The position numbers and the translations under genes were made by a program. Below are positions 10,819 to 61,658 of a DNA stretch of 64,000 nt, piece after piece; the stretch's first letter is position 1, and each line of letters starts with the position of its first letter. This stretch comes from Rikenellaceae bacterium (GTDB lineage Bacteria; Bacteroidota; Bacteroidia; Bacteroidales; Rikenellaceae), in the NCBI GenBank assembly GCA_044433665.1, contig JAWXTJ010000006.1, positions 5,369-69,368 of the forward strand, in the 5' to 3' direction. The notes under the pieces are model-generated. The model had not been told where the DNA came from. It saw nothing but the letters and a program-made list of their open reading frames with translations, and did not search any database.

Positions 10819-10843
10819 CTTTGTATAATTTAAATGACTAACA

Positions 10844-10851
10844 CAAATATA
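10844..10851 (-). promoter_or_regulatory. -7 box (TAtaTTTG on the minus strand) for the NUDIX gene
   Basis: Plus-strand caaatata lies about 25 nt upstream of the start at 10818, inside the N-terminal extension of the 10834 ORF call. Confidence 0.45.
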
Positions 10852-10869
10852 ATAAATATATTGATAACT

Positions 10870-13712: not shown

Positions 13713-13735
13713 GGGGAGAGATTAGAACTTCCCTA
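13713..13735. repeat. Solo sequence resembling the terminal inverted repeat of the 160-bp element
   Basis: ggggagagattagaacttcccta against the element end tagggagaaattagaactcccc. The core GGGAGA-ATTAGAACT-CCC is shared with about 2 mismatches. Confidence 0.45.
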
Positions 13736-23010: not shown

Positions 23011-24282
23011 ATGATAAATATAATCGTTGTTATACTCTTAACATTGTTGCTCTCAGCCTTTTTCTCAGGTATGGAGATTGCCTTTGTGAGTAAAAACCGA
23101 TTGAAATTAGAGATAGAGCGTAAGCAGAATAGAGCCTTCGACTATCTAGTTGAAATATTTGCTAATAACCCAGGGCAATATATCACAACGATATTGGTGG
23201 GTAATAATATTTCGCTTGTTATCTATTCGCTCTTTATGTCGAAATTAGTCCGTGAGGTTGCTCTCCATTTTGGGTGGTTCTCGATTGCTCACAATGGGTC
23301 GGTGTTTGTTGAGACTATACTTTCGACTTTGATGATTATTTTTATTGGAGAGTTTCTTCCGAAGTCTATTTTTAAGCATAATCCAAATTTTTACTTTCGG
23401 ATTTTTGCTGCTCCAATCTACTTTTTTTACCTTTTACTCTATCCTATTGCGAAGTTTACGACACTTCTCTCGATGCTTATGTTGCGTCTTATTGGACACA
23501 AAGTTGATGAGCAGAGTGTTGATGCAACTTTCGATAGGTCGGATTTAGCGAGTCTACTCGATACTTCGACTCCTGAGGTTGCCAGTGAGACTGAGAATGA
23601 GATTAAGTTGTTTCAAAATGCCTTGGATTTTGCCGATCAGAGAGTTCGGGATTGCATGACGCAACGTGTAGATATTGAGGCGGTTGATATAGATGCAACT
23701 TCAATTAAAGATATTACCGAGCGTTTCACACAGACGAAATATTCACGTTTGTTTGTGTGGCGAGGCAGTATTGATAATATTATCGGATATGTAAACTCTA
23801 AATCTCTGTTTCACGACCCGCAAGATCTGAGCTCAATTGTTAAGAGCGTAAATTGTGTTCCTGAGTCTATGCCGTTGACACTTTTGATTCAGACGTTGAC
23901 CAAGGATAAACGCAATATTGCAGTGGTTATTGATGAATTTGGCGGTACGGCTGGTGTAATATCATTGGAGGATGTTTTGGAGCAGATTTTCGGTGAAATC
24001 GAAGATGAGCATGATGAACCAGAGATGATCGAGAAGGAGCTAGCCGAGAATGAATATCTTTTTGCAGGTCGCTTGGAGGTGAAGTATCTCAATGAACGTT
24101 ATGATCTTGATTTGGAGGAGAGTGAAGATTATGATACCTTGGCGGGATATATTATCTATACACACAAAGGTATTCCCGTACCAGGTGAGAGTGTCGCAAT
24201 ATCACATTTTGACTTTAAAATTCTGAAAACTACAGATACTCGTATAGAGTTAGTTAGGGTGAAGCTCATAAGTGAGAGGTAA
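23011..24282 (+). CDS. DUF21-CBS-CorC/HlyC family membrane protein (GldE / hemolysin-like)
   Basis: 423 aa with four N-terminal TM helices, a CBS pair and a C-terminal CorC_HlyC-like domain. Confidence 0.8.
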   Translation: MINIIVVILLTLLLSAFFSGMEIAFVSKNRLKLEIERKQNRAFDYLVEIFANNPGQYITTILVGNNISLVIYSLFMSKLVREVALHFGWFSIAHNGSVFVETILSTLMIIFIGEFLPKSIFKHNPNFYFRIFAAPIYFFYLLLYPIAKFTTLLSMLMLRLIGHKVDEQSVDATFDRSDLASLLDTSTPEVASETENEIKLFQNALDFADQRVRDCMTQRVDIEAVDIDATSIKDITERFTQTKYSRLFVWRGSIDNIIGYVNSKSLFHDPQDLSSIVKSVNCVPESMPLTLLIQTLTKDKRNIAVVIDEFGGTAGVISLEDVLEQIFGEIEDEHDEPEMIEKELAENEYLFAGRLEVKYLNERYDLDLEESEDYDTLAGYIIYTHKGIPVPGESVAISHFDFKILKTTDTRIELVRVKLISER

Positions 24283-24313
24283 TCTTTGAGGATAATTTAC
24301 TCTTTTAGTTTAA

Positions 24314-24473
24314 GGGGAGTTCTAATTTCTCCCTAAAATACTTTTCGATTACTAACCACCCCTTTTTGATTTTACAAAAATAGGTGGTAGAGCTACTACA
24401 ACCCACTTTTGCAAAATCAAAAATGGATAATTATTAACCAAAAAATAAAATTAGGGAGAAAATAGAACTCCCC
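24314..24473. mobile_element. 160-bp hairpin MITE-like element, copy 1, flanked by a TTAA direct duplication
   Basis: Ends are ggggagttctaatttctcccta and tagggagaaaatagaactcccc (21 of 22 complementary). TTAA occurs at 24310-24313 and 24474-24477. Nearly identical to the copies at 59767 and 59884. Confidence 0.8.
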
Positions 24474-24529
24474 TTAAAAGATTTTGTTATTTTAAGTCAC
24501 ATCTTATCTATTCTTTAAAATTATTTTAT

Positions 24530-24577: not shown

Positions 24578-26608
24578 ATGGCAAGTTTAAACACGCTACG
24601 AACCAAATTTGGTTATGTGCTTTCGGCAATTATTGCCTTTGCACTTTTGGCATTTATCTTCTCGTTGAAGAACGAGATGGGATTCTCATCTAATGATGTA
24701 AAGGTTGGAGAGATTAATTCAGAGGATGTGTTGTACACGGAGTACTATGCAGAGTATGAGAACATTAAGGATCAATCAGGCGCTACCGAGTCTACAGAGC
24801 AACAAGCTGCTGCTTTGGCGACAGCTGCATGGCAATCAATGATCTCGAAGAAACTTTTTATTCCAGGCTTCGAGCAGTTGGGTATCACAATGAGTGAGGC
24901 TGAGCGCATGGCTGTAATCAGCGGTGAGATCATGACTCAATCGTTCAGCTCTGCATTTGCAGATCCTGCAACAGGAGTTTTCAATCCAGCATATCTTGCT
25001 CAATTCTTGAGTCAAGCGTCTGTAAATCCTCAAGTAGATGTTGCTTGGGCTCAAATCAATGAACAAGCTCGTGAGGAGCGTGCAGCATTGAAGTTCAGTA
25101 CCTTGGTTCGCACTGGAGCTTATGCCAATAAGTTGGAGGTTGCGCAAGGTGTAACCTCAGCAAACAATAGCTACTCAGGAAAATGGGTTAGCAAGCCATA
25201 CACATCTATGCCAGACTCTCTTTTCACAGTGACAGACGCTGAGATTAAGAAATATTACGAGGCTAATAAGGCTGCATATCGCAAGTCGCCAACTCGTACA
25301 TTAAGTTATGTAACTTTTGCATTCGATCCTACTGAGGAGGATATTGTTAATTTGGAGAATACCGCATTGAGTGTAAGCAAGGAGTTTGCAGCGGCTGAGG
25401 ATCTTAAGAGTTTTGTACGTGGAAACCTTAATGGTTCTATTACTGATAACTATATGTCGACAGCTCAACTTACAGCGGCTCAGGCTGAGGCATTTGCCAA
25501 GGGTGAGATGTATGGTCCATTGAATACAAATAATATCTGGACAATGTCGAGAGTTGCTTCAACGATCTCTGCACCAGATTCAGTAGGTCTTCGTCACATA
25601 GTTCTTAGCTATACTCAAGAGGCTTTGGCCGATAGCTTGGTTACAGCGCTTAAGGGTGGTGCAGATTTTGCACAGGCAGCTTTGGAGAACTCTCTATACA
25701 CACAAACTGCTCAAGTTGGTGGTGAGGTTGGAGTGTTACCTTTCTCTTCTTTCTCGGATGAATTCGTTTCGGTTCTAGCAACAGCTAAGGCTGGCGATAT
25801 TGTGAAGATCTCGGCAGGTGATATGATTCAAATCCTTGAGGTTTATCGTGCTGATAGCCGTAAGCCACACTATCAAGTTGCAACGGTTGAGTATCCAGTG
25901 GAGGCATCTCAAACGACTATCTCGGCTCTTCATACTGATGCAGGTATGTACTCGGTTGATGCTAAGGGTGGTGTAAGTAAGTTCAACAGTGCAGCAAATG
26001 AGCATGGCATAGTTGTAAGAACAGCTTCTATTACTAATGGCGATCGCACAATTCGCACAATCAATGACTCTCGCGAGATTACTCGTTGGGCTTATGGTGC
26101 TGAGGTTGGTGATATGTCAGATATTTTCAAGACTGAAGATGGTTATGTTGTTGCAGTTCTAACAGGAATCGACGATGAAGAGTATCGTTCACTTGCAAGT
26201 GTAACCCCTACAATTCGTACAGTTCTTATTCGTGATAAGAAGTTTGCTGAGGCATCTAAGTCAATGACAGGTTCTTCGATTGAGGTGATTGGAGCGGCAG
26301 TTGATAGCGAGGTTGGTGAGTTTGCAGATGTGCAGTTTGTATCGCAATATATTGCAGGAATTGGTGTTGAGCCTAAGGTTGTAGGTGCTATTACGCTTAG
26401 TGGCACGGTAGGTCTTACAGCTCCAATTCAAGGTCTTTCGGGAGTTTATGTTCTTGACATTGCACCAGCAGTAACAACAGCGGATCAAACAGAGAGCATG
26501 GAGAGTGCACTTGCACAAGCGACAGTTGAAGACAGAATGTCACAATATGTATTCAATGCTGTACAGGGTATGGCTAGTATTAAAGATCTTAGAGGTAAGT
26601 ATTTTTAA
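24578..26608 (+). CDS. PpiD-like membrane-anchored periplasmic chaperone / peptidylprolyl isomerase
   Basis: 676 aa with an N-terminal TM anchor (YVLSAIIAFALLAFIF), a SurA-N-like region and a parvulin-like segment (GLRHIVLSY...GGEVGVL). Confidence 0.65.
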   Translation: MASLNTLRTKFGYVLSAIIAFALLAFIFSLKNEMGFSSNDVKVGEINSEDVLYTEYYAEYENIKDQSGATESTEQQAAALATAAWQSMISKKLFIPGFEQLGITMSEAERMAVISGEIMTQSFSSAFADPATGVFNPAYLAQFLSQASVNPQVDVAWAQINEQAREERAALKFSTLVRTGAYANKLEVAQGVTSANNSYSGKWVSKPYTSMPDSLFTVTDAEIKKYYEANKAAYRKSPTRTLSYVTFAFDPTEEDIVNLENTALSVSKEFAAAEDLKSFVRGNLNGSITDNYMSTAQLTAAQAEAFAKGEMYGPLNTNNIWTMSRVASTISAPDSVGLRHIVLSYTQEALADSLVTALKGGADFAQAALENSLYTQTAQVGGEVGVLPFSSFSDEFVSVLATAKAGDIVKISAGDMIQILEVYRADSRKPHYQVATVEYPVEASQTTISALHTDAGMYSVDAKGGVSKFNSAANEHGIVVRTASITNGDRTIRTINDSREITRWAYGAEVGDMSDIFKTEDGYVVAVLTGIDDEEYRSLASVTPTIRTVLIRDKKFAEASKSMTGSSIEVIGAAVDSEVGEFADVQFVSQYIAGIGVEPKVVGAITLSGTVGLTAPIQGLSGVYVLDIAPAVTTADQTESMESALAQATVEDRMSQYVFNAVQGMASIKDLRGKYF

Positions 26609-46876: not shown

Positions 46877-48043
46877 TTATTTCTTCCGTTGCAGTCGGTC
46901 AACAAGCCAGTAGGGTAGGAGGCTACAAATAGCTCTTTTTATTGTGATCTCTATTTGTCTGCTTATTGGGACGTAGACCAAACGTTGGAGCTCTCCGATC
47001 ATATCTGTGTCGATCGCTGTAAAGAATTTTTCTCTGGATACTGGTGTCGGTGTCGAGTTGTTCGCTGAGGGGTTCCATTGGATGGCGGTGGGGTAGTCTA
47101 CCTCTATTGTGTTTAATTTTATCTTTTGAATGGTTTCAACTCCTTTGGGAGTATTAACTATCAACAAGTTTACACCTTTATTATCATTGAATTTCGGTGC
47201 AACTCTTTCTATCCCCCAAAAATCACCTAATGTAATGTCGCTACCGCTTTTCCCAGATTTCGCTGGACAGTGGTGACATGCAGGACGTAGAAATAGATCG
47301 TTGAAGAAACCTTGCATAAAAAGATTTTGGGTCGCTTTTTGGTCTATTATCGTTTTATTGTTTGCAACGATTGAGATATTATAATCGTTCCAACTTCGTT
47401 TTTTGTCTCGAAAATTGATTGCGCTAATTGTTGATGTGTCAGCTATATTGTTCAAATATTGTCGCCAAACTTTTGGGCTCGGTGTACCGTGACATATAAA
47501 ATCTATAGTTGTTAATTTTGTATCGTCGGAGCCAATATGAAGTCTAAGTGCCGCAATTTGACAAGGTGTGCCGCAAAAAAGCACCTCTCTATTCTTTTTT
47601 AGATATGCTTTTACTTCATTAAATGTATCTCCAATTCGACTTTGTGAATATTTTGAACCTCGCAGGGCTGCAAGCTCTTCAATATTGCTCGCCCCAATGT
47701 GAACAACCTCCCATTGAGAGTTAAACTTTGCACCAAAGACAACGCCTCCATTTTGGATGGTGTTTTGAGCAAGAGAGGTGAAAAGTCCACCCGATGTGCT
47801 TTGTTTGCGGATCTGTTCATCTATGTTGCGTGCTGCATATACCTTTATTGGCTCATGACTCTCGGATTGATTTATAACAGGACACACTTTTTCGCATAGG
47901 CCGCAGTCGATGCAGCTTTTAATCTCTACGCTTGGATAGATGAAACCCTCATTATCTTCACGCATGGAAATGCAATTTGTCGGGCAACTTTGCGCACATG
48001 CTTCACATCCGCAACAATCTTTTTTATGCTCAATTTTTATCAT
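46877..48043 (-). CDS. FrhB-family (coenzyme F420 hydrogenase/dehydrogenase beta-like) Fe-S protein typical of polysaccharide loci
   Basis: N-terminal CCGCEACAQSCP and CIDCGLCEKVCP clusters plus an FrhB-like body. Overlaps the wzx-like gene by 4 nt. Confidence 0.65.
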   Translation of the reverse strand: MIKIEHKKDCCGCEACAQSCPTNCISMREDNEGFIYPSVEIKSCIDCGLCEKVCPVINQSESHEPIKVYAARNIDEQIRKQSTSGGLFTSLAQNTIQNGGVVFGAKFNSQWEVVHIGASNIEELAALRGSKYSQSRIGDTFNEVKAYLKKNREVLFCGTPCQIAALRLHIGSDDTKLTTIDFICHGTPSPKVWRQYLNNIADTSTISAINFRDKKRSWNDYNISIVANNKTIIDQKATQNLFMQGFFNDLFLRPACHHCPAKSGKSGSDITLGDFWGIERVAPKFNDNKGVNLLIVNTPKGVETIQKIKLNTIEVDYPTAIQWNPSANNSTPTPVSREKFFTAIDTDMIGELQRLVYVPISRQIEITIKRAICSLLPYWLVDRLQRKK

Positions 48044-49563
48044 TTTTTTGTGCGTGTTATGATTTTATTTACTGTACTTTTGAGTAATCCTTTTTCGTAG
48101 TTGTTAATAGAAAAAAGCCAAAATAGAGGTAGGTAGATAACTGAAAATAGCGTTGCTGCGATTGCGAATTGACCAATTGTTTGCACGCAGAATATATTGT
48201 TTAGATAGCCACCGAGAGCAAGTAAAATAGCTGGAATAATCGACATCTTGCCAATTTCACGCCAAAAATTGATAATATCAATTTTGATTTTAGTGTGATA
48301 ATATATATTCATTATGATAATTTGGCCAGTAATTAGCGCTGCTGCTGTAGCAATTGCACATCCCATACCACCGTAGCGAGGAGCCAAAATGACGGATAGA
48401 ATCAAACTTAATAGAGCAATACAAAGATAGAGCACAGAGCGGAATTTCATGCGATTTTGAGCTTGAAGGATAGTGATACCTAAATTTTGAATTAGAGGAA
48501 TGGTGAGCGGAATAAAAAATAGAAGGGCGATGTAGTATGCTTGGTCGTAATCTGCACCTGCCCACAGAGTTATAAATGGTCTACCGAGTAGGATAAATCC
48601 CGTGAGAATAAACGCCATCACAGAGTATTGAATCCTGCCTGTTTTTATAAATAGGTCTGAAATCTCGGCTTGGCAATCTCCTTTGGTTACCATTGCTGTA
48701 ACCTTAGGCAAGAAAACTCCAGATATTGCAGTTGAGAAGAGCATATATAATTGTTGCAATTGAATCGCAACAGAGTAGATTGCAACGGACACGGCACCTT
48801 TATAAATACCTAATATAAACTGCCCTGAGCTCCAATATATTTTGTCCATGATGGCATTTAGGAAGATCCAAAAGGAGTATATAAATATCTCTTTGAAAAA
48901 ATACCATTTAAACTTGCCGTAGATAATTTTTATATGTAGTTTGTTGCGACAATACCACCAATTTATAAGTAGGGTAGTGAGGTTGAAGATTGTTGTAATG
49001 ATGACCAGCGCAATAGCTTTATAACCCATTAGCAATACAATCACCATCACAGGCGGATTAAGTATCATTCGAATTATACAGACAACACGCTGAAAAATAA
49101 AATCTTCATAAGCAGTGATAATAGATCCAAAGATTGAAAGCGGAAAAGTAAAGGCAAGATTTAGCGACATAAGAATAATTATAATTCTCATCTTTTCAAC
49201 CTCTTCACCATTCATTGTATCTCCAAAGAGAGCTTGGGTGTTGAGCATCAAAGCAAGACCAGCAAGGAGTGCAATGGCTCCAATGCCAATATATAGCCTA
49301 AGGAACATCCCAAACATTTCATATTGATCTTGAAGTCTCCCTTCGGCACGAAATTTAGCAGTGTATCTGATTATAGCATTTCCAAAACCAAGATCAAGAA
49401 GTGTAAGGTATGCAATCAGCGACGCAGCTAGAGAGTATAATCCATACTCCACCTGCCCCAGCGTCCTTAACATAAATGGAGTGTAGATCACACCAATAAG
49501 AATGTTAAAAACGATGATAATATATGAAAGTGCAGCTCCTGCTTTTAGTTGATTTATGCCCAT
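48040..49563 (-). CDS. wzx: Wzx-type oligosaccharide flippase (polysaccharide biosynthesis protein family)
   Basis: 507 aa with about 12-14 TM helices and a MOP-superfamily-like layout. Confidence 0.7.
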   Translation of the reverse strand: MGINQLKAGAALSYIIIVFNILIGVIYTPFMLRTLGQVEYGLYSLAASLIAYLTLLDLGFGNAIIRYTAKFRAEGRLQDQYEMFGMFLRLYIGIGAIALLAGLALMLNTQALFGDTMNGEEVEKMRIIIILMSLNLAFTFPLSIFGSIITAYEDFIFQRVVCIIRMILNPPVMVIVLLMGYKAIALVIITTIFNLTTLLINWWYCRNKLHIKIIYGKFKWYFFKEIFIYSFWIFLNAIMDKIYWSSGQFILGIYKGAVSVAIYSVAIQLQQLYMLFSTAISGVFLPKVTAMVTKGDCQAEISDLFIKTGRIQYSVMAFILTGFILLGRPFITLWAGADYDQAYYIALLFFIPLTIPLIQNLGITILQAQNRMKFRSVLYLCIALLSLILSVILAPRYGGMGCAIATAAALITGQIIIMNIYYHTKIKIDIINFWREIGKMSIIPAILLALGGYLNNIFCVQTIGQFAIAATLFSVIYLPLFWLFSINNYEKGLLKSTVNKIITRTKK

Positions 49564-49606
49564 TTTTTCTGGTTTGTATTTAAGAAAGGTTCACTTCGAA
49601 TTGGGT

Positions 49607-49712
49607 TTAAATGCCTTTAGGCATTTAATGAATTTTAGGGGTTAAGGAGTTTGCAAATTTATTTGCGGAACTCCTTAATTTCTAAAATCATCTAGCTTTA
49701 AAAAAGCTAGAT
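49607..49712. repeat. Three consecutive unrelated palindromic hairpins in the spacer upstream of wzx
   Basis: H1 49607-49628 ttaaatgcc/ggcatttaa. H2 49632-49688 attttag..ttaaggagtt(t)gcaaat / atttgc(gg)aactccttaa..ctaaaat. H3 49690-49712 atctagctt/aagctagat. Confidence 0.7.
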
Positions 49713-49798
49713 GCCCAATATCGCAAGAGGAGAGTGCACCAGCGGGGGTGCTATCCCCGCCCGTCGGAGACAGTCCGCAACGTAAGAAACTATAAACC
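49710..49798. other. Conserved-end block A, unknown element or sRNA candidate, paralogous to 61801-61928
   Basis: Shares GATGC..CG(C/T)AAGAG at one end and CCGCCCG..CAGTC(C/T)G(C/A)AACGTAAGAA..ACTATAAA at the other with block B. The middles differ. Confidence 0.35.
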
Positions 49799-49807
49799 AT
49801 CCTACAC

Positions 49808-49843
49808 AAAAGACCAATAAACAGGATTATTTATTGGTCTTTT
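49808..49843. terminator. Bidirectional terminator hairpin downstream of the HAD-like gene
   Basis: aaaagaccaataaa-caggatta-tttattggtctttt. Confidence 0.7.
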
Positions 49844-49851
49844 ATTCGTTT

Positions 49852-50286
49852 TTATTTGTTGCTCCAGCCTGAAAGTCTCTCTTTGAGAGTGAGCTTTCTT
49901 GGTTTTGCTTCCGATCTATAATCTGATGGAATTGGTTTAAGATGTCTTCGGCTGCTTACCATCTGATAAATCACGCCCCAACCTGGGAGCCCACCAAGGC
50001 TACGATCATCTATAAATAGATCAGCTTTCACCTTTCTCGAAAAGCCTCTCTCTCCGCCAACCTCTTCTGGAAAGTCACGATTAATAGCGTAAAACTCTAC
50101 TCCCCGCTGACGACACCACTCTACAGCCTCATCTAAAAGTTCTCCTTCGCGAACTGTCCAAAGTATCAAGCGATGTTGATCCTTTAGAAGTAACTTTAAT
50201 GTGTCAATTGCAAAAGGTATCTCTTCTCCAATTCTCGGATAACGGTGTTCGACTATTGTTCCGTCGAAATCTACAGCTATTACCAT
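49852..50286 (-). CDS. Small HAD-superfamily-like hydrolase
   Basis: 144 aa with N-terminal VIAVDFDGTIV (DxDGT nucleophile motif) and a later FIDD. Confidence 0.5.
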   Translation of the reverse strand: MVIAVDFDGTIVEHRYPRIGEEIPFAIDTLKLLLKDQHRLILWTVREGELLDEAVEWCRQRGVEFYAINRDFPEEVGGERGFSRKVKADLFIDDRSLGGLPGWGVIYQMVSSRRHLKPIPSDYRSEAKPRKLTLKERLSGWSNK

Positions 50287-50314
50287 ATTATCAAATAAAT
50301 TTTTCTGTTAGAGA

Positions 50315-50725
50315 TTATGGCCTATTGGCATAATCATCATTCTCTTTTTTAGTCAATTGCAGTATTGCAAAATATGAACATCCAAGCCCAACTTCCCCGA
50401 CAATCATATCTAAAATATTAAACTCTCGATAGGGTATAAGTGCCTGCAATAATTCCAAAGCAATAACAAATGTAGTGCCAATCAAAAACCAAGATCGGTG
50501 TTGAAACTTAGATCCATATATGTAACATCCAAAAAACATCCAAGGTGTGTAGACTAAAAAGTGCATTACATAGTCACCTAGTTCTCCATATCCAATTGGA
50601 TTATGAATCCCAGTGTCACCTGGAGAGTAAACCATAGCAGCAATCAATAATATTAGATAAACTGAAAATGTGTATTTATTAAATAAAAATTTCATACTTA
50701 ATGCTAAAGTTAACTCTCTGTACAC
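50315..50725 (-). CDS. VanZ-like membrane protein
   Basis: 136 aa with four TM segments and LELLQALIPYREFNILDMIVGEVG, resembling the VanZ signature. Confidence 0.55.
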   Translation of the reverse strand: MYRELTLALSMKFLFNKYTFSVYLILLIAAMVYSPGDTGIHNPIGYGELGDYVMHFLVYTPWMFFGCYIYGSKFQHRSWFLIGTTFVIALELLQALIPYREFNILDMIVGEVGLGCSYFAILQLTKKENDDYANRP

Positions 50726-50734
50726 TTAATAATC

Positions 50735-53173
50735 TTATTTTTTCTCCTCTGGCTCGTTACCATATCCGTAACCATAGCCATATTGAGCACCATAACCATA
50801 TCCATACTTGTTACCGTAACCATATTTATTACCATAACCATAGTAACCGTAACGACGCTTACGAAGGTCAACATCATTGATTACTGTAGATAGATTTGGA
50901 ACTTTATTATTGTGATATAGCTCGTTGATGAAGCGGTAATCAGACTTGTTCGAGTAGTTTGCACGACAAACGTATATTGAAATGTCAGCTACACGAGCAA
51001 TAATTTGAGTATCGGTAATCATTCCGATAGGAGCAGTATCAAGGATAACATAATCGTAATTCTCTTTAAGAATCTCAATCGCCTTATCCAATGTGTCACG
51101 TGAAAGTAGCTCAGTTGGGTTTGGTGGGATTGTTCCACCAAAAAGTATTGACAGGTTCTCTGTAATCCCAGATGGTTGAATCAGCGACAATAAATCAATT
51201 GATGGATTCGATAAATAGTTGCTGATACCCTTAAGTTTACCCGACATACCAAAGGCTCTATTCAAACCAGGTTTACGAATATCCAAACCAACGATTACAA
51301 CTTTCTTACCCATAAGAGCTAAACTCAAGGCTAAGTTTGAAGAGGTAAAACTCTTACCCTCACCACTACATGTTGATGTAATTAAGGCAACTTTTTGATT
51401 CTCCTTGAACATAAAGAGCATATTGGTTCTCAGAGCACGGAAAGACTCTGCCATAATGTCATTTTTATTCTCTTGAACAACTATACTCTTGTTGTTTTCT
51501 GGGAACTCAATGCAGGTTGGAATATCCGCCAAGACAGGAACTGGAGTGATCTTTTCTATATCTGTGCGATCTTCAATCTTAAAGCTGAATAGATCTTTCA
51601 AATATACTATAGCCATAGGGATTCCCATTCCAAGAATTAATGCTATTAATATATACATCTTCTTGTTTGGGGATACAGGAGCATCTGAACCAAGAGGTTC
51701 ATTGAACATGCGAGCATTGTTCGCCGTTGATGCCAATGTTAAGGCATTCTCTTCACGCTTTTGTAGAAGCATCAAATAAAGCGTAGATTGAATCTCTTGT
51801 TGGCGTGCTATATTCATAAACTCCTTTTCCTTGGTTGGAGCACTGCTAATACGTCTTGCATAGACATTAGCCTCTGTCTCAATATCTTTTTGCGTTATCA
51901 AAAGACCCTCGTATACACTTGAAATAGTTGTGAGGACACTGTTGCGCATCGAGCTAATATTTGTATCAATATTAACAACAGCAGGGTTGTTTTCTGAAGA
52001 TGTTAAAAGCAGACGTTTACGCTCAAGAATAATTTCGTTGTAGTTGCCAATTAACTCAGTTAACTTATTATTTGTAAGACCTACATCGACTGGAAGAACC
52101 TCGTATTTATTTGCAGGATCAGTTGCATAATTATTCAAGAATTGAACCATGCGCATTTGCGTGCTGTTCTCTACTATACGTTGTTGGTAAGTAGAATTTC
52201 CCTGTAATGCTAACTCTGCCTCACTTTGAATATTGGTGATTCCAGCCTCTTTTTTGAAGTTCTCTAACTCGGTCTCAGTAATACCCAACTCTTGGTCGAT
52301 GATAATGATACGCTCACTAATGAACTCAGAGGTTTTCAGTGCAACTTCATTTTTGAAGTCGTTTGCATCTTGGTTGTATAGTTCGACTAGCTTGTTAATA
52401 AAGTCAACTCCACGTGCAACAGAACTTCCAGTAAAGGTAATATTTGCAATAGTTGTAGTTTTTGAACTTGCTGCGATAGCCAAGTTTTTAGAATAGCCTC
52501 TAGCTACAGCTATAGGATTCGAGATAGAGACAAGCAATTCATCATCTTCGCTCCATGTGGTTAGAGCCTCCTCTGAACCTTTATTGAAACTGAATGTTCC
52601 TTGTGGTGTAACAAGAACAGATGGGAATTTATCAAATGTTTTAGAGTATTCTACCTCTTCCTTATTTTCATCTAACATCGTTGCTACAACACTAAACTTA
52701 GTTGGAGATATAAGTTTAATTGATATGTCAGCCTTTCCTATTTCAGTTGCCTCTTCAGGTGACATCCATACATCTATTGGACTATTCTTATAAATATCTT
52801 CATTGCGGAAGATACCTCTTCTTGCATAGTTTATATATAGATTCTCACTAATAACAGTATTTTTAATAAGAGTTCTTGAACTTAAAATCTCTAGCTCATT
52901 ATCAAAGTTGTTTGTTACAGCAAAAAAACCTAAATTCTCCATGTCAAGCATGGAATTACTATGATTGTTTTGACTCTCGTGATCGATGATTACCGATGCC
53001 GTAACTTCATAAATAGGTGTTAATGTCTTTAAATAAAGATACATTCCTGCAATGAGTAAAAATACCGAAGCTACAAAATAGTACCAGTAGTTAAGGTATC
53101 TAAACAGCAGAGCAATAATATCAAAGCTCTCTTCGTTTTGTTCGTTCTGTTCGTTGAATAAATTCTCGTTCAT
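50735..53173 (-). CDS. wzc: Wzc-type polysaccharide co-polymerase / BY-kinase (GumC/EpsB family)
   Basis: 812 aa with a Wzz-like periplasmic domain between two TM helices, Walker A TSTCSGEGKSF, Walker B-like YVILDTAP, and a Tyr-rich C-terminal tail. Confidence 0.85.
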   Translation of the reverse strand: MNENLFNEQNEQNEESFDIIALLFRYLNYWYYFVASVFLLIAGMYLYLKTLTPIYEVTASVIIDHESQNNHSNSMLDMENLGFFAVTNNFDNELEILSSRTLIKNTVISENLYINYARRGIFRNEDIYKNSPIDVWMSPEEATEIGKADISIKLISPTKFSVVATMLDENKEEVEYSKTFDKFPSVLVTPQGTFSFNKGSEEALTTWSEDDELLVSISNPIAVARGYSKNLAIAASSKTTTIANITFTGSSVARGVDFINKLVELYNQDANDFKNEVALKTSEFISERIIIIDQELGITETELENFKKEAGITNIQSEAELALQGNSTYQQRIVENSTQMRMVQFLNNYATDPANKYEVLPVDVGLTNNKLTELIGNYNEIILERKRLLLTSSENNPAVVNIDTNISSMRNSVLTTISSVYEGLLITQKDIETEANVYARRISSAPTKEKEFMNIARQQEIQSTLYLMLLQKREENALTLASTANNARMFNEPLGSDAPVSPNKKMYILIALILGMGIPMAIVYLKDLFSFKIEDRTDIEKITPVPVLADIPTCIEFPENNKSIVVQENKNDIMAESFRALRTNMLFMFKENQKVALITSTCSGEGKSFTSSNLALSLALMGKKVVIVGLDIRKPGLNRAFGMSGKLKGISNYLSNPSIDLLSLIQPSGITENLSILFGGTIPPNPTELLSRDTLDKAIEILKENYDYVILDTAPIGMITDTQIIARVADISIYVCRANYSNKSDYRFINELYHNNKVPNLSTVINDVDLRKRRYGYYGYGNKYGYGNKYGYGYGAQYGYGYGYGNEPEEKK

Positions 53174-53194
53174 GATATTTTGTATAATGTACTG

Positions 53195-53992
53195 TTATAA
53201 TAGAATTGAGACTAGTAGTGTCGCAAGTGATACTGTTGTGCTTACTACCGAGAACCAAATTGTTGTACTGCTACTAATTCCAGCTGTTTTCGCCTTAGAT
53301 TTATTTGGTGTTACATAAAGAACATCGTTTTGTTGTAGGTAGTAATAAGGTGATGCAATAATATCTGGATTAGTAATATCTAATTCGACAACTTTACGCT
53401 CGCCTAAGTGGTCTTCTCTTACAAGTTTTACGTTTGTACGTTGTCCATAGATAGACATATCACCTGCCATTGCTAATGCTTCAAGTATTGTTACTTTTTC
53501 ATTGTCAATAGTGAAAGTTCCAGGTTTGCTCACCTCTCCCAAAACAGAGATATTGTAGTTTGTCATTCGAACACTTACGATAGGTGTCTCTTTTAGGTAA
53601 ATTTTCAACTCTTCCTTTATAAGATCTTCTGCTTGACCTTTTGTTAAACCACCAACTTTAATTGCTCCAATGATGGGGAAATCAATATATCCCTCATTAC
53701 TTACAAGGTACTTTTGGAGAGCTGGCTGAGATGTTGATGATTGGTTTGTTGATGATGTAACAAGTGTAGGTACAGTCAAATTAAAAGGTATTGCTACTGT
53801 TGGATCACTTGTACTAACAGTAATTGTAATAAGATCCTTAGGCATGATTACAGCATCATACAATGAAATTTCTGTACCTGTTGTGTAGTCATCAGAACCC
53901 TGTAAATAAGGCACTTGCATATAAGCCTTGCTACAGCTTGTAATAAATGCAGCAAACGTTACTAATAGCAATAAATAAAATCTTTTTTGCAT
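53195..53992 (-). CDS. wza: Wza-type polysaccharide export outer-membrane lipoprotein
   Basis: 265 aa with lipobox ITSC and Poly_export/SLBB-like segments (GYIDFPIIGAIKVGGLT, GEVSKPGTF). Confidence 0.75.
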   Translation of the reverse strand: MQKRFYLLLLVTFAAFITSCSKAYMQVPYLQGSDDYTTGTEISLYDAVIMPKDLITITVSTSDPTVAIPFNLTVPTLVTSSTNQSSTSQPALQKYLVSNEGYIDFPIIGAIKVGGLTKGQAEDLIKEELKIYLKETPIVSVRMTNYNISVLGEVSKPGTFTIDNEKVTILEALAMAGDMSIYGQRTNVKLVREDHLGERKVVELDITNPDIIASPYYYLQQNDVLYVTPNKSKAKTAGISSSTTIWFSVVSTTVSLATLLVSILL

Positions 53993-54013
53993 ATCTAAAT
54001 ATTATTAATTTTT

Positions 54014-55408
54014 CTAAAACGCTTTATCATCCTTTTGAGCTATAACATTAGCTACAGTCTTATATATAATGTATAGGTCAAGCATAAATGTCCAGTGCTC
54101 CATATACCATATGTCAGCTTTCACACGACCCTCCATCTCTGAGAGTTCTTTCGTTTCACCTCTAAACCCTGTAACTTGAGCCCATCCTGTAACACCTGGT
54201 TTCACGAAGTGACGAACCATATATGTATCAATGAGTTTCGAGTACTCTTCGGTATGTTTTATCATATGAGGACGTGGCCCTACAATTGACATCTGACCTA
54301 TAAATACATTGAGAAATTGAGGTAATTCATCAATGCTTGTTTTGCGCATAAACTCTCCGATCTTCGTTACGCGTGGATCTCCTTTAGTGGCTTGCTTCGT
54401 ATTAGCATCAGCGCTATTTTTCATTGAACGGAATTTAAGACATTTAAACTCTCTGCCATCCAATCCATGTCTTTTTTGACTAAAGAAAATAGGTCCTTTA
54501 GAGGTTGCTTTAATCAATATTCCAAATATTAGCAATATTATTGGAAATAGTGTAACTAAAAAGATACCAGAGAAGATTACATCAGCTATTCGTTTGATAC
54601 ATCTATTGTCTAATTTTGCCAATGGCTCTGGGTGAATAGAGAGTACAGGAGTATTACTAAATTGTTCAAGATTCACTCGACGACTAAGATAATTGCGTAA
54701 ATTAGGCACACTATAAAAGCGGGTCAAATGACGTTCACAATGAGTAATTATTGGAACAATAATGTCTTTCATTGCAGACGGAAGCGAACAATATAGGCGT
54801 TGCACTTCATGTTTTTCAAGATATGAAACAACATCTTCACATTTGCCAAGATATTCCGCTTCAAACTTTTCATTCTGCTCCGTATCAAAATATCCTAAGA
54901 CTCTATATCCCGTCTCGTTGTTGACCATCTCTTTGTATAGCTCACGAATATTACTTTTGCTGCCAACAAAGACTACATCACAAGATTGCCCACCACGTCG
55001 GCGAGCCCCTTTAAGTAAACCTTGATAACACAATCTAAATGCAGAAATTGCTAAAAATGTAAGTGTAATTAGTGTTGCAATTGATTGCGTCATGCTCCAA
55101 GAAAACTTAAAGTCTGTAGATGATGCCCAAAGTGAGATAAACCAAATAATAGTAAATCCGATAATGTTTTTAGCTACGGATGTCACAATTTGGTCTGCAC
55201 GCACACGTCGGCGATGCAGTTTAACACCTCCAAACGTCGTAACGCTTACTAGATAGCATAGTGTCAGAATGATATAGTGTTGAGGAGTCTCCCACAACAG
55301 AGCAAAATCATTTGGGAATGACAATATACTAAATAGAAAATTTAAAATAACAATATCTACTATTATTACACTTCCAATAATAAACTTACTCTCTTTATCT
55401 GGTTCCAT
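54014..55408 (-). CDS. Undecaprenyl-phosphate hexose-1-phosphate transferase (WbaP/WcaJ-like initiating sugar transferase)
   Basis: 464 aa with N-terminal TM helices and a C-terminal bacterial sugar transferase domain (KFRSM, DELPQFLNV, SIVGPRP). Confidence 0.85.
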   Translation of the reverse strand: MEPDKESKFIIGSVIIVDIVILNFLFSILSFPNDFALLWETPQHYIILTLCYLVSVTTFGGVKLHRRRVRADQIVTSVAKNIIGFTIIWFISLWASSTDFKFSWSMTQSIATLITLTFLAISAFRLCYQGLLKGARRRGGQSCDVVFVGSKSNIRELYKEMVNNETGYRVLGYFDTEQNEKFEAEYLGKCEDVVSYLEKHEVQRLYCSLPSAMKDIIVPIITHCERHLTRFYSVPNLRNYLSRRVNLEQFSNTPVLSIHPEPLAKLDNRCIKRIADVIFSGIFLVTLFPIILLIFGILIKATSKGPIFFSQKRHGLDGREFKCLKFRSMKNSADANTKQATKGDPRVTKIGEFMRKTSIDELPQFLNVFIGQMSIVGPRPHMIKHTEEYSKLIDTYMVRHFVKPGVTGWAQVTGFRGETKELSEMEGRVKADIWYMEHWTFMLDLYIIYKTVANVIAQKDDKAF

Positions 55409-55826
55409 AATAATTATTATATTTAAAAGTTTTCGCCAAAAAATAAAAAAGTTTAACCCTATTATACATCCCTACCTTCAAACCTGCCGAGTTGACTAGT
55501 TTGTCAATTAGTAGGTTTAATTTCTAAATTTATCACATTTATATCCTTTTTATTTGAATATTGATAATATCTAGATGAGTTTAAGATACTCCCCATACAA
55601 AAAAAGGTGTTTTAAACCGACGTAAAGGTAGTAAAGATATTTATCTAATCCAACTTTTTTGGCTTAATTAATAGTGTGTTTACAACAATATAAGTGCATC
55701 TTTTTTTAAATATCAGAATATAAGCATTTTATAACAACCTTTTTATTATAGATAAAATTAATAAATTTATAAAAACAATTAATTATTTTACACTGCTTAA
55801 GTGTGTGGTTTATTAGATGATATATT

Positions 55827-55887
55827 TATAAACAAATAACTACGGTCATTAATTATTAAAATTAACGACCGTAGTTATTTGTTTATA
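55827..55887 (-). terminator. Long hairpin (21+5 bp stem) downstream of the secA / dCMP-deaminase unit
   Basis: tataaacaaataactacggtc...gaccgtagttatttgtttata, 24 nt after the stop at 55911. Confidence 0.6.
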
Positions 55888-55910
55888 GAAAAAGTAAGTG
55901 GTTACTCAAC

Positions 55911-56345
55911 TTAATCAATCTTACAGAATACACACTCTATTCCAACCCTATCTAATAAATCAGGGCCATCCTCACAGTGATATTTATCTGAGTAAACAAC
56001 TCGTTTAATCCCTGCTTGAATAATCAACTTTGCGCATTCGATGCAGGGCGAAGTTGTAACATATAGAGTAGCCCCTTGGCAATTATTTGCACTTTTAGCC
56101 ACTTTAGTTATTGCATTTGCTTCTGCATGAAGGACATAAGCCTTGGTTTTACCCGTTGTGTCATCTTCGCAGATATTTTCAAAACCAGATGGCGTACCAT
56201 TGTAACCATCCGAGATAATCATTTGATCTTTGACAATTAGTGCACCTACTTGTCGACGCACGCAATATGAGTTCTCAGCCCATATTGCGGCCATGCGCAA
56301 GTAACGTTGATCCAATAATCGTTGCTTTTGCTCTTGATAACCCAT
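55911..56345 (-). CDS. dCMP deaminase (ComEB-type cytidine/deoxycytidylate deaminase)
   Basis: 144 aa with zinc motifs HAEANAI and PCIECAKLI. Confidence 0.85.
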   Translation of the reverse strand: MGYQEQKQRLLDQRYLRMAAIWAENSYCVRRQVGALIVKDQMIISDGYNGTPSGFENICEDDTTGKTKAYVLHAEANAITKVAKSANNCQGATLYVTTSPCIECAKLIIQAGIKRVVYSDKYHCEDGPDLLDRVGIECVFCKID

Positions 56346-56353
56346 TGCAAAAA

Positions 56354-59300
56354 TTACTGTAATTTACCGTGACACGCTTTATACTTTTTGCCACTTCCGC
56401 ATGGACATGGATCATTGCGACCCACTTTTTTCTCCGCTTGAGCTGGCATTGGCTTCTGCTTCTCTGCTTGTCCTGCTTGAGCCGCAGCTTGTACACGTGA
56501 CTCTTGAAGTTTATTTACGTCAACTTTCGGACGCTCCGCACGAGCCTTTGGGGCTTCAACGCGATCTGTGCGTACTGGAATATATGATTTGTTAATCACA
56601 GCCAACACATCACGATTAATCTTAAGAAGCATCTTCGAGAAGAGCTCAAACGACTCAAATTTGTAGATCAAAAGTGGATCCTTTTGCTCATAAGTTGCAT
56701 TTTGTACACTTTGACGAAGATCATCCATCTCACGCAAGTGCTCACGCCAAGCATCATCAATTGTTGTAAACATAACAACTTTTGAGAATACCTTAAAGAT
56801 CTCCAATCCCTCGCTATCCTTACAACGTTGAATATTTACAGGTACATTATAACCCAAATGTCCGTTAGTAATCGGGAATACAATGTTTGAGTCTAAATTA
56901 TCTTGACGATCAATGTAAACCTTAGCCATAACTGGAGCAACCATATCGGCAATTTGTTTTGCACGACGAGTATAGTGAGCTTGAATATCCGATACTATAA
57001 GATCAACCAACTCCCCCTTTTTAGCATTTGAATATTGTGCAGCGTCGAATGATGGCTCAACAGCAATATCTCGCATCAACTCTAAGCGGAAATCCTCAAA
57101 GTCTACACCCTCATTCTGTGCAACAAAATTCTCAGCATAGTCACACATTATATTATTAAGGTCAATTTCGATACGCTCACCATGAAGTGCATGGCGACGA
57201 CGAGTGTAAATCACCTCACGTTGCGAGTTCATCACATCATCATACTCCAAAAGACGTTTACGAACACCGAAGTTATTCTCCTCGACTTTCTTTTGCGCAC
57301 GCTCGATGGTCTTGGTCATAACACCTGCTTGAATTACTTCGCCCTCTTCAAGACCCATTCTATCCATAATTGAAGCTACACGCTCCGAACCAAATAGACG
57401 CATCAAATTATCCTCAAACGAGACAAAGAATTGTGAAGAACCTGGATCACCCTGACGACCTGCACGACCACGCAACTGACGGTCAACACGACGGCTATCA
57501 TGACGCTCAGTACCGATAATTGCCAAACCGCCAGCAGCCTTTACCTCAGCTGTAAGTTTAATATCCGTACCACGACCCGCCATATTTGTTGCAATTGTCA
57601 CCTGACCTGGACGACCCGCCTCAGCAACAATTTGCGCCTCCGCTTGGTGCTGCTTCGCATTAAGTACATTATGCTTGATCTTACGCAAAGTAAGCATTCG
57701 ACTCAAAAGCTCAGAGATCTCCACCGAAGTTGTACCAACCAAAACTGGACGATTCTGCTCAACTAATTTTTGAATCTCCTCGATTACCGCATTATATTTC
57801 TCACGTTTAGTCTTATAGATCAAATCCTCACGGTCATCACGCAAAATTGGACGATTCGTTGGGATAACAACAACATCAAGCTCGTAAATACTCCAAAACT
57901 CCGAAGCCTCAGTCTCAGCGGTACCAGTCATACCACCCAACTTATGATACATGCGGAAATAATTTTGAAGCGTCACTGTAGCAAAAGTCTGTGTCGCAGC
58001 CTCCACAACAACACGCTCCTTAGCCTCGATAGCTTGGTGTAATCCATCCGAGTAACGACGGCCATCCATAATACGACCTGTCTGCTCGTCGACGATTTTC
58101 ACTTTGTTATCCATAACCACATATTCAGTATCCTTTTCGAACATTGAATATGCTTTAAGAAGTTGATTTACTGTATGTACACGCTCAGATTTCACCGCAT
58201 ACTCCTTAATCAACTCATCTTTCTTCTCTACACGCTCCTCAGCCGAGAATGAACTCTTCTCAAGCTCGGCAATCTCAGAACCAATATCAGGCAAAACGAA
58301 GAAACCATCCTCCTTGAAATATTTCGATAGCATCTCATGTCCCTTATCGGTAAGTTCCACAGAGTTAGATTTCTCGTCAATCACAAAGAATAACTCATCG
58401 GTAATCTCGTGCATACGACGATTATTATCCTGCATATAGATATTCTCGGTCTTTTGCATCTGACTCTTAATACCTGTCTCAGAGAGGAACTTAATAAGTG
58501 GTTTCGATTTAGGTAGAGCCTTGTGAGCACGATAAAGAGCTACGCCACCTTCATCTGTATTTCCTGCACTAATCAATCTGCGAGAATCTGAAAGCAATGA
58601 TGTCGCTAAACTCTTTTGAAGATTATATAGCTGGTCTATAGCTGGTCTATATTGCTCAAACATCTGATCGTCACCCTTTGGCACAGGACCCGAGATAATC
58701 AAAGGTGTACGAGCATCATCAATCAAAACTGAATCGACCTCATCGACAATTGCGAAATGGTGCTTGCGTTGTACAAGATCCTTTGGCGAAGATGCCATAT
58801 TATCACGCAAATAGTCAAAACCATATTCGTTATTTGTTCCAAAGGTAATATCAGCCATATACGCTTGACGACGAGCCTCAGAATTTGGCTTGTAACGGTC
58901 TATACAATCCACCGATAAACCATGGAATTGATAGATTGGCCCCATCCATTCAGAGTCACGCTTCGAAAGGTAGTCATTGACGGTAACCAAGTGAACACCC
59001 TTGCCAGCCAAGGCATTAAGGAATACAGGAAGTGTCGCAACAAGCGTCTTACCCTCACCCGTAGCCATCTCGGCAATCTTACCCTTGTGAAGAACCACAC
59101 CACCGAAAAGCTGAACATCATAATGAATCATCTCCCACTTAATGTCGTTTCCACCAGCTAGCCAATGTGTGGCAAAAATAGCTTTGTCACCCTCGATAGT
59201 TACAAAATCTTTGGTTGCTGAAAGGTCTCTATCGAAGTCGGTTGCTGTAACCTCTATTGTCTCACTCTCGGTAAAACGACGAGCGGTATCTTTCATAATT

Positions 59301-59644
59301 GCAAAGGCCTCGGGAAGAATCTCATCGAGCTTTTGTTCAATCTTCTCGTCTATACTCTTTTTGATCTGGTCAACCTCTTTCGAGATGCTCTCCTTTTCAG
59401 AAAGTGAGATCTCCGAAGATTCCAATTTCGATTTAAGCTCTACAATTCGAGCCTCGTCATCGGCAATAAAATCGGCAATAAGATGACGCAATGCTACGCT
59501 ACGTTCACGCAACTCATCATTCGAGAGTTTAGAGATTGAAGGGTAAATGGCCTTGACTTTCTCTACATAGGGTTCGATCTCTTTGCGATCTTTATCGCTC
59601 TTTGATCCAAATACTAGTTTTATTAAACTTGCTACAATGTCCAT
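56354..59644 (-). CDS. secA: Preprotein translocase ATPase SecA
   Basis: 1096 aa with [14 protein letters not shown], the [23 protein letters not shown] box and the C-terminal zinc motif [14 protein letters not shown]. Confidence 0.97.
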
Positions 59645-59681: not shown

Positions 59682-59689
59682 CAAAGATA
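59682..59689 (-). promoter_or_regulatory. -7 box (TAtcTTTG on the minus strand) for secA
   Basis: Plus-strand caaagata lies about 38 nt upstream of the start at 59644. Confidence 0.5.
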
Positions 59690-59766
59690 CAAATATAATT
59701 CTAATATCAATAACCTTTGTGGGCTTATTTCAGTGTAAAACCGCTAAAAGTTATATGAAATCTAAA

Positions 59767-60090
59767 GGGGAGTTCTAATTTCTCCCTAAAATACTTTTCG
59801 ATTACTAACCACCCCTTTTTGGTTTTACAAAAATAGCTGGTAGAGCTACTACAACCCACTTTTGCAAAATCAAAAATGGATAAGTGGAGTTCTAATTTCT
59901 CCCTAAAATACTTTTCGATTACTAACTACCCATTTTTGATTTTACAAAAATCGGTAGTAGAGCTACTACAACCCATATTTGCAAAATCAAAAATGGGTAA
60001 TTATTAACCAAAAATTAAAATCAGGGAGAAAATAGAACTCCCCATAATTATTAACCAAAAATTAAAATTAGGGAGAAAATAGAACTCCCC
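59767..60090. mobile_element. 160-bp hairpin MITE-like element, copy 2 (outer), interrupted by copy 3; flanked by a TAAA duplication
   Basis: 59767-59883 plus 60048-60090 total 160 bp, with 3 substitutions against copy 1. TAAA occurs at 59763-59766 and 60091-60094. Confidence 0.85.
59884..60043. mobile_element. 160-bp hairpin MITE-like element, copy 3 (inner), inserted into copy 2 with an ATAA duplication
   Basis: gtggagttc...gaactcccc, 160 bp, about ten substitutions against copy 1. ATAA occurs at 59880-59883 and 60044-60047, whereas intact copy 1 has a single ATAA at the same internal position. Confidence 0.85.
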
Positions 60091-60190
60091 TAAATTTAAA
60101 ATAAAAGTTTATCGATTACATTATCCTCGTAAAAGTGAAATAAAAATAAAAAACTTGCACTATTTGTGTTAATATTATAATAATTTTTAA

Positions 60191-60198
60191 TACCTTTG
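60191..60198 (+). promoter_or_regulatory. -7 box (TAccTTTG) for metK
   Basis: Exact TAnnTTTG match. A TTTG at 60163-60166 could be a -33 element, although the spacing is longer than typical. Confidence 0.5.
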
Positions 60199-60368
60199 CA
60201 TCGCTTTTCTAATTAAAAAAGCGGTGTGGAAAGATTTGACTGATTGCAAACCACAATAAAAAAGAGCTAAAACAGCCCTCGAAAGAGCCTATAGCCCCTA
60301 TTTATTTTCTTTGTATCAGGCCAACTTCCCCAATTTAAAGTTTAATAACAAAACATAAATTAAATATT
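60199..60368 (+). promoter_or_regulatory. Long structured metK 5' leader, candidate SAM-responsive riboswitch of unassigned class
   Basis: About 165 nt lie between the -7 box and the ATG, against 20-45 nt for other genes here. It contains the hairpin cgctttt/aaaagcg (60202-60223), a helix tgtgg/ccaca around a 21-nt loop, and an A-rich tail AAAAAAGAGCTAAAA. Confidence 0.3.
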
Positions 60369-61658
60369 ATGGGATTTTTATTTACATCTGAGTCTGTCTC
60401 TGAGGGACATCCAGATAAAGTTTCAGACCAGATCTCTGATGCCATTCTTGACGAATTTTTGCGTCACGATCAAAATTCAAAGGTAGCTTGCGAGACCCTT
60501 TGTACAACAGGACTTGTCGTTGTTTCGGGTGAGGTTCGCTCGGAGGCTTATGTCGATGTGCAGTCAATTACTCGCTCGGTAATCAACAAAATCGGATATA
60601 ATAAAAGCGAGTATCAATTCGATGGTAACTCATGCGGAATACTCTCGGCAATTCACGAGCAATCGGCAGACATTAACCAAGGTGTTGTTCGTGCTGAGGA
60701 GGCTGAGCAAGGTGCTGGAGATCAAGGAATCATGTTTGGATATGCAACCAACGAAACACTTGAACTTATGCCTGCAACATTGATCCTTTCACATGTTATT
60801 TTAAAGGAGCTAGCAGACGTGCGTCGTCAGGGAGAGGTTATGACATATCTTCGTCCAGATTCGAAGAGTCAAGTAACAATTGAGTATGGTGATGATCGTA
60901 AACCACAGAGAGTTCACACGATAGTTGTTTCAACACAACATGATGAATTTATTGCAACGACATCAGAGATAAGCGAAAAAGAGGCTGAGGTGCAGATGCA
61001 AAATAAGATTCGTGAGGATGTTCGCACAATCTTAATTCCACGTGTTAAGGCTCGTTTGGAGCGTGCTGGAGATAAATTAGCTGAACTAATTGGTGATGAT
61101 TATATCTTGCATGTTAACCCAACAGGAAAATTTGTCATTGGTGGCCCTCACGGAGACACAGGCCTTACGGGACGTAAAATCATTGTTGATACGTATGGTG
61201 GTCGAGGAGCTCATGGTGGTGGTGCATTCTCGGGTAAGGACTCTTCAAAGGTGGATCGCTCGGCAGCATATGCGGCACGTCATATTGCAAAAAATATGGT
61301 TGCAGCAGGTGTAGCTGATGAGGTTATGGTTCAATTAAGTTACGCAATCGGTATTGCAGAGCCATTATCAATATATGTCAGCACCTATGGCAGCAATAAC
61401 CTCTCAATTAGCGAGGGAGAAATTGCAGAAAAAATTGGTAAACTTTTCGATTTACGTCCAGCAGCTATTGTGAAACGTTACGGTTTGAAAAATCCAATTT
61501 TCCAGGCAACAGCGTCATATGGACACTTTGGAAATAGACCATACAAGGCGAATGCAACTATCTTTGAGGATGGAAAAGCTGTTGAAAAAGAGATTGAATT
61601 CTTCGGCTGGGAGCGTCTTGATGCCGTTGATGTTATCAAAGCAGAATTTGGATTGTAA
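60369..61658 (+). CDS. metK: S-adenosylmethionine synthase
   Basis: 429 aa with [34 protein letters not shown] and DRSAAYAAR motifs. Confidence 0.97.

Follow-up and report, generated by a model that had tools for sequence, protein, structure and literature searches.

The Correia elements of Neisseria and the pneumococcal RUP elements are about 100-160 bp long, carry terminal inverted repeats, lie in intergenic DNA, have the potential to form hairpins and duplicate TA. In Porphyromonas gingivalis, MITE239, MITE700, MITEPgRS/MITE464 and BrickBuilt are likewise short, intergenic, non-coding and multicopy, and have terminal inverted repeats (PMC4596501). These repeats correspond to the ends of resident insertion sequences, and ISPg1, ISPg3, ISPg4 and ISPg9 have been identified as the parents; ACGTGAGTTCG, for instance, forms the termini of both ISPg3 and MITE239 (PMC4596501).

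The DNA analyzed here is a stretch of 64,000 nucleotides from a Rikenellaceae bacterium, hereafter called the window. It carries an element that is, with high probability, a mobile non-autonomous DNA transposon (MITE) with 4-bp T-W-W-A target duplications, presumably served in trans by a DDE transposase. An earlier note had described one copy of this element inserted into another in the spacer between the divergent genes secA and metK. When the region was read again and the copies were aligned, coordinates, lengths, ends and flanks were reproduced to the base. The relevant features are the following:

56354-59644, minus strand: secA (NF009536, 1779 bits), context, outside the element
59763-59766: TAAA, left target duplication of the outer element, directly 5' of GGGGAG at 59767, recurring at 60091-60094
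59767-59883, plus strand: outer MITE, positions 1-117, from the left terminal inverted repeat GGGGAGTTCTAATTTCTCCC to ATAA, the target of the inner copy
59880-59883 and 60044-60047: ATAA duplication flanking the inner copy, the second unit being 60044-60047
59884-60043, plus strand: inner MITE, complete, 160 bp, in the same orientation as the outer one, with both termini and one substitution in the left tip (GTGGAG)
60048-60090, plus strand: outer MITE, positions 118-160, with the right terminal inverted repeat GGGAGAAAATAGAACTCCCC (family D2 of the repeat scan)
60091-60094: TAAA, right target duplication of the outer element
60220-60280, plus strand: SAM-II long-loop riboswitch (RF01726) in the leader of metK, scoring 62.7 bits where the gathering score is 44
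60369-61658, plus strand: metK open reading frame (TIGR01034), context
24314-24473, plus strand: copy 1, an uninterrupted paralogue, with TTAA at 24310-24313 and 24474-24477

The window harbors three copies of the MITE, and a repeat scan of its whole length detected no other dispersed repeat family of this size. The 22-nt terminus, allowing up to three mismatches, occurs six times in the window and was not found in any of 100 dinucleotide shuffles. Copy 1 is intergenic, with a CNNM/CorC-type transporter gene (23011-24282) on one side and a PpiD/SurA-like gene (24578-26608) on the other. At the position where the outer copy is split, copy 1 has a single ATAA (24427-24430). Positions 1-117 of the outer copy are 98% identical to copy 1, and the two parts of the outer copy, once rejoined, add up to 160 bp (117 + 43). 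Alignment of the three copies gave 3 substitutions between the outer copy and copy 1 and 10 between the inner copy and copy 1, in agreement with the earlier counts, as well as 11 between the inner and the outer copy.

Because copy 1 displays the target before insertion, the nested pair brings its own empty-site control. The boundaries, the length of the duplication and the order of events are therefore fixed without experiment, and the pair documents transposition together with its own control. At the secA/metK site, the younger insertion must be the inner copy, whose larger divergence reflects a different source lineage, not age. One copy entered the spacer at TAAA first; a copy of another sub-lineage later entered at an ATAA that lies in the right, AT-rich arm of the earlier copy.

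Since the sequences were assembled from short metagenomic reads, and several contigs of the census described below break within copies, the nested arrangement might have arisen because reads from two or three separate copies were wrongly joined. Several observations speak against such an artefact. The inner copy is complete and is cleanly bounded by a duplicated ATAA that is single in copy 1. The inner and outer copies have not been collapsed, because 11 positions differ between them. A stretch of 6.6 kb that includes the whole 724-bp spacer shows 0 mismatches to contigs of GCA_047172605.1 and GCA_047172585.1, which are separate NCBI MAG assemblies with contigs of differing length. There are nine contigs with a MetK identical to that of the window, and the two that were compared belong to these assemblies. 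Comparable nested insertions are also found in other MAGs (L028 and L057). Judging from these sequences, we consider it very unlikely that the nesting is an artefact.

The same divergent secA-metK order is conserved in three related species whose MetK is 91-92% identical to that of the window, and their secA-metK spacers, 336-358 bp long, do not contain any MITE copy. The insertion is real and lineage-specific. The spacers of the nearest species, while lacking the element, are too diverged to display the single TAAA that an empty site for the outer copy would have. The pair is absent from species with so similar a MetK, but the word "recent" holds for its transposition only in a relative sense.

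Two short motifs of the spacer are conserved in the four species: CAAAGATA at 59682-59689 (on the secA strand, TATCTTTG) and TACCTTTG at 60191-60198. The consensus of the Bacteroidetes -7 promoter box is TAnnTTTG, and both TATCTTTG (on the secA strand) and TACCTTTG fit it. On the basis of these motifs, the nested pair (59767-60090) would lie between two likely divergent promoters, neither of which is interrupted; given the positions of the conserved motifs, its end therefore lies some 100 bp upstream of the probable promoter of metK. The sequence of the SAM-II riboswitch is nearly invariant across the four aligned species. On the far side of secA, the interval 48000-56000 of the window has a low GC content (34-37%, compared with about 41% for the window) and contains genes for polysaccharide synthesis and export. 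An open reading frame of 812 aa in this interval (50735-53173) has no Pfam hit and carries an internal repeat of 18-24 nt (family D3).

Copies in other genomes were sought by an exact match to the 19-nt terminus GGAGTTCTAWTTTCTCCCT, using one genome per species, and the copies present in the fetched loci were located by BLAST and pattern searches. Scanning of public genomes for the terminus returned at least 75 loci, nearly all of them in Rikenellaceae MAGs; the matches in other taxa were a handful of single ones that look like chance. Because the census was seeded by an exact terminus match, the conservation of the termini is partly an ascertainment effect. Among the loci listed there are 40 full-length copies of 160-162 bp, and none of these 40 lies inside an open reading frame of 120 aa or more. 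Further classes are internal-deletion derivatives, copies cut at contig ends and solo termini. The deletion derivatives measure 47 bp in L029 and 78 bp in L046, and each retains both ends and a TTAA duplication.

The 47-bp copy (L029, 1095-1141) and a full-length copy (L045, 5787-5948), both flanked by TTAA, adjoin an orthologous block of 1.4 kb that is 85% identical between the two MAGs. The two copies may be one ancestral insertion in two states.

Altogether, the census bears out the proposal of a mobile element with terminal inverted repeats. It is small and non-coding, ends in inverted repeats, makes a duplication of fixed length and variable sequence, and occurs in dispersed copies, as bacterial MITEs do; with 160-161 bp, it has no room for a transposase gene. 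Copies of the family abound in a clade of uncultured Rikenellaceae and break the assemblies of these bacteria. The names of the MAGs (FM_nn_Gnnn_IV/V) resemble those of Kyphosus gut sections in PMC11748540, and the MAGs may therefore come from fish hindgut. Neither the terminus sequence nor the accessions of the source MAGs were found in the searchable literature, and the element is not described in MITE reviews or in papers on Alistipes genomics. The family thus appears to be undescribed.

We then compared the flanks of all copies in element orientation. Perfect 4-bp duplications were found at 34 of the 45 copies among the loci listed, a count that takes in nested hosts and the two deletion derivatives. 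In the 32 copies with a perfect duplication for which the longest flank match was determined, it was exactly 4 bp in every case (32/32). Full-length copies with perfectly duplicated targets and sufficient flank (29 copies) gave this target logo: T (27/29), A/T, A/T (with one G) and A (29/29). The surroundings of the targets are AT-rich and otherwise unspecific. At least eight different tetranucleotides are duplicated, and TTAA makes up about 40-50% of the targets; the central dinucleotide can be TA, AT, AA, TT or TG. The 4-bp A/T-rich duplications reported for the window are thus present at other copies too, perfect in 34/45, and the preferred target is T-W-W-A, a near-palindrome.

A peculiarity of the flanks permits, however, a second reading. 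Immediately to the left of the element stands A in 45/45 copies, and immediately to its right T in 43/45. Among the 11 imperfect duplications, seven are mismatched at the base farthest from the element, and at that base alone, while none is mismatched at the proximal base. A near-invariant proximal base and distal mismatches make a 2-bp parse possible: the true ends of the element would be A-GGGG...CCCC-T (162 bp), and only the central WW would be duplicated within a preferred T-WW-A target. IS630-type elements duplicate TA within CTAG in a similar manner, and both parses predict identical sequences wherever T and A are invariant. The informative cases are those in which the first base is not T and is nevertheless duplicated on both sides, namely ATAA at the inner copy of the window, AATA in L005 and CTAA in L018, a copy of a sister family described below. 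Under the 2-bp parse, each of these (ATAA/ATAA, AATA/AATA, CTAA/CTAA) needs a mutated tip that matches the flank by chance. In addition, a central AT is nearly as frequent as TA, and AA or TT also occur, unlike in TA-specific families. We consider the 2-bp parse unlikely and keep the 4-bp reading because the three informative cases duplicate a non-T outer base on both flanks. Judging from the flanks, the element very probably duplicates 4 bp rather than 2.

The element is non-coding and AT-rich, with 32.5% GC compared with 40.6% for the window. Its terminal inverted repeats, GGGGAGTTCTA(A/T)TTTCTCCC, are 20-22 bp long, and the two 22-nt ends of copy 1 differ at one position. Each terminus is in turn a small palindrome, GGGAG-N9-CTCCC, and left/right polarity is consistent among copies. 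As single-stranded DNA, copy 1 is predicted to fold into a full-length hairpin (-35.3 kcal/mol, z = -9.2). In an alignment of 41 sequences that includes a diverged subfamily (L007, L012, L052, L067 and L071), helix 1 is 98.5% paired over 19 pairs, and the central stem-loop (GTAGT...ACTAC) is maintained through compensatory changes. Changes on both sides were counted by pair and by cell:

Pairs with changes on both sides: 8 observed, 4.5 in shuffled alignments, 1-5 in slid registers
Cells with changes on both sides: 43 observed, 7.4 in shuffled alignments, 1-6 in slid registers

The compensatory changes admit more than one explanation. One is that they could reflect selection on structure. An alternative possibility is that they could be the product of template-switch correction, which quasi-palindromes typically undergo and which yields compensatory changes without selection.

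An element that is a hairpin as a whole, with a central stem-loop maintained by compensatory changes, with a small palindrome at each terminus and with solo termini, also calls to mind a REP/REPIN-like hairpin that owes its spread to a RAYT or to an HUH transposase of the IS200/IS605 type, or else a structured RNA family. Aside from the fact that template switching could account for the compensatory changes, this idea has to face the variable 4-bp duplications at 34/45 copies, as HUH-type elements make no target duplication. The window contains no RAYT or IS200-like gene, and the element does not attain the gathering score of any Rfam family. No linked RAYT/TnpA(Y1) gene flanked by MITE repeats was seen, nor any regular insertion 3' of a single invariant tetranucleotide in which duplications are lacking. 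Because target duplications are made, the element is not a REP/REPIN, and we give hardly any credence to this class of explanations.

The tendency of the element to land in A/T-rich DNA, its own body included, was already pointed out in the earlier note, and it is further illustrated by four insertions into copies outside the window. All five insertions, that of the window and those in L057, L028, L036 and L098, hit the right arm, which is rich in A/T, between about positions 114 and 140, and can be summarized as follows. In L057, a family-1 copy with a TATA duplication is split at 4705-4867 by a MITE of a sister family, with a TAAA duplication. The sister family has ends GGGGACTTCTAATAATTCCC, a length of about 161-163 bp and 4-bp duplications, as seen in that copy (TAAA) and in L018 at 4777-4937 (CTAA). 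In L028, a family-1 copy with a TTAA duplication is split at about 4658-4820 by an unrelated inverted-repeat element of about 163 bp, whose ends are TAAGTAGTGTAAAAC...GTTTTACCCTACTTA. In L036, a family-1 copy (4615-4720) is cut short by an element with LNNRPRKRLGYLTPNEKF encoded at its end, and the contig stops there; this terminal coding sequence resembles, as we take it, the C-terminus of IS30-family transposases. In L098, a MITE-like element is interrupted by an IS982-family element. Copy bodies thus attract unrelated elements too. The AT-rich and selectively neutral body of the MITE would provide a favored landing site both for the MITE itself and for other elements.

Solo termini deserve separate consideration. 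Among the loci listed, 12 clear solo termini of exactly 20 bp were found, and 6 of the 12 have matching 4-bp flanks (TATA in three, TAAA in two, TTAA in one; permutation P = 0.03). A relic of this kind is also present in the window, 33 bp upstream of an RNase E/G gene (13767-15317); a match of its quality is expected by chance about 2e-4 times in 128 kb of both strands.

13714-13733, minus strand: relic solo terminus GGGAAGTTCTAATCTCTCCC, an 18/20 match to the terminal repeat
L006 2973, L025 5585, L032 3278, L072 1019, L042 5425 and L073 1289: solo termini with matching flanks

Matching flanks might suggest that solo termini are independently mobile units of 20 bp. This candidate is not favored because a deletion between direct repeats predicts exactly the same product. 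The deletion would take place between the CCCT at positions 18-21 and the CCCT formed by positions 158-160 and the first base of the right duplication; its product would retain both original duplications and would have three, not four, terminal Cs. Such an event is analogous to the "nearly precise excision" of Tn10. Solo termini are therefore best explained as CCCT direct-repeat deletion products.

The mobility of so small an element would depend on a transposase encoded elsewhere in the genome. In the proposed mechanism, a DDE-type transposase acting in trans would bind the terminal repeats and join the ends to the target at cuts with a 4-bp stagger. No transposase is present in the window, as had been stated before: the Pfam annotation of the matching contig, which covers about 21-64 kb of the window, lists none, and a direct Pfam scan of the ten open reading frames of 250 aa or more within 427-22964 detected none either. 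An open reading frame of 712 aa (10834-12972) is annotated as a peptidase.

Searches for an autonomous partner beyond the window were also negative. Long repeats common to the fetched loci did not reveal one, as only one orthologous pair was detected, and inverted pairs of termini 0.4-3.5 kb apart in the loci never had matching duplications or full termini. In the JGI metagenomes, a search for termini followed by non-MITE sequence gave 0 hits, while a general terminus scan gave 30, mostly single matches by chance, together with two diverged copies (L088 and L098). Viral contigs yielded one chance match, without duplication, and the plasmid collection PLSDB, searched in distant mode, yielded nothing beyond chance. 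Because MAGs usually lack multi-copy insertion sequences, the absence of a partner from MAGs and from the other searches is weak evidence against its existence.

One of the metagenomic copies offered a lead. L098 contains TTAA and an exact MITE terminus, followed 240 bp further on by a truncated transposase gene of the IS982 family (NF033520, E = 3.5e-54). Examination of the locus indicated that an IS982-family element (150-927) lies inside a MITE-like element, and that the two do not have their ends in common. The remainder of the L098 contig looks unrelated and may be chimeric. Full-length relatives of the IS982-family element are found in L119 (2899-3928), L120 (481-1511) and L121, with ends ACGTGAGTTCG...CGAACTCACGT, and that of L121 is flanked by a 7-bp duplication, TATATTA. 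None of the 75 Rikenellaceae loci listed contains an IS982-family homologue. As a parent of the MITE, this element was rejected: its ends are its own and differ from those of the MITE, its duplication measures 7 bp, and it is therefore a passenger that inserted into the MITE-like element.

Because no autonomous partner with these termini was found, we can only infer the family of the transposase and its DDE chemistry. By analogy, and from the 4-bp duplication and the G-rich tips alone, the transposase would most likely belong to the IS4/IS5-type DDE group.

A more adventurous idea is that palindromic T-W-W-A targets and exact 4-bp duplications are the mark of a transposase lineage unrecognised in bacteria or, in a weaker variant, that solo termini are mobile. 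We consider both improbable. If true, the former would be a new transposase lineage and a prokaryotic counterpart of TTAA-type targeting, and mobile solo termini would be the smallest known transposable units. For the rest, the element is an ordinary bacterial MITE that opens no long-standing question. The T-W-W-A logo and the conserved termini provide a precise search key for the missing transposase as soon as complete genomes become available, and the consensus of the MITE can aid scaffolding, strain typing via insertion polymorphism and annotation of intergenic DNA.

Comparison with known systems delimits the place of this family. The IS5 group (IS5 family) makes 4-bp duplications at short, often palindromic targets that contain A/T (YTAR, CTAG), and its ends begin with G. 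The Rikenellaceae MITE is alike in the 4-bp duplication and the G-rich tip; its TATA and TAAA targets, however, do not fit YTAR, and no IS5-type transposase flanked by MITE termini was found in the searches made. Tn3-derived miniature elements (TIMEs) have inverted repeats of about 38 bp that start with GGGG, and make 5-bp duplications. The GGGG tip is present here, yet the repeats are only 20-22 bp long and 4 bp, not 5, are duplicated, so that a Tn3-derived origin was discarded.

Correia and RUP elements are similar to the Rikenellaceae MITE in size, inverted repeats and intergenic location, and differ in the duplication, which is TA in the former and a 4-bp TWWA in the latter. A TA-duplicating MITE of the IS630/Tc1-mariner type was likewise rejected in view of the 4-bp duplication, with the outer base duplicated in the three informative cases. 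Among eukaryotic elements, piggyBac-type (TTAA) and Tourist/Harbinger-type (TWA) MITEs have short, palindromic A/T targets and perfect duplications, and MITE-in-MITE nesting is frequent in plants. The target of piggyBac is strictly TTAA and its ends are CCC...GGG, whereas TTAA accounts for a part only of the targets of the Rikenellaceae MITE, whose ends are GGGG...CCCC.

The IS982-family element of L098 and L119-L121 has in common with the MITE a GAGTTC-N-AA core, AT-rich sites and an origin in Bacteroidales-type metagenomes, and differs in its tip, which is ACGT instead of GGG. The core is offset by 1 nt between the two tips and is weak evidence of kinship at most. A derivative of the IS982 family, such as MITE239 with its termini ACGTGAGTTCGA, was discarded as an identity for the Rikenellaceae MITE: 9/12 bases match, and only with an offset of 1 nt, and the duplication in L121 is 7 bp long. 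The MITEs of P. gingivalis and that of Rikenellaceae belong to the same order, Bacteroidales, and all are short, intergenic and non-coding. Their termini are, however, different (GAGACC... or ACGTGAGTTCGA in P. gingivalis, GGGGAGTTCTAA in Rikenellaceae), and parent insertion sequences are known for the former while none was found for the latter. Lastly, BrickBuilt and PgRS contain internal tandem repeats, whereas the Rikenellaceae MITE is a simple foldback.
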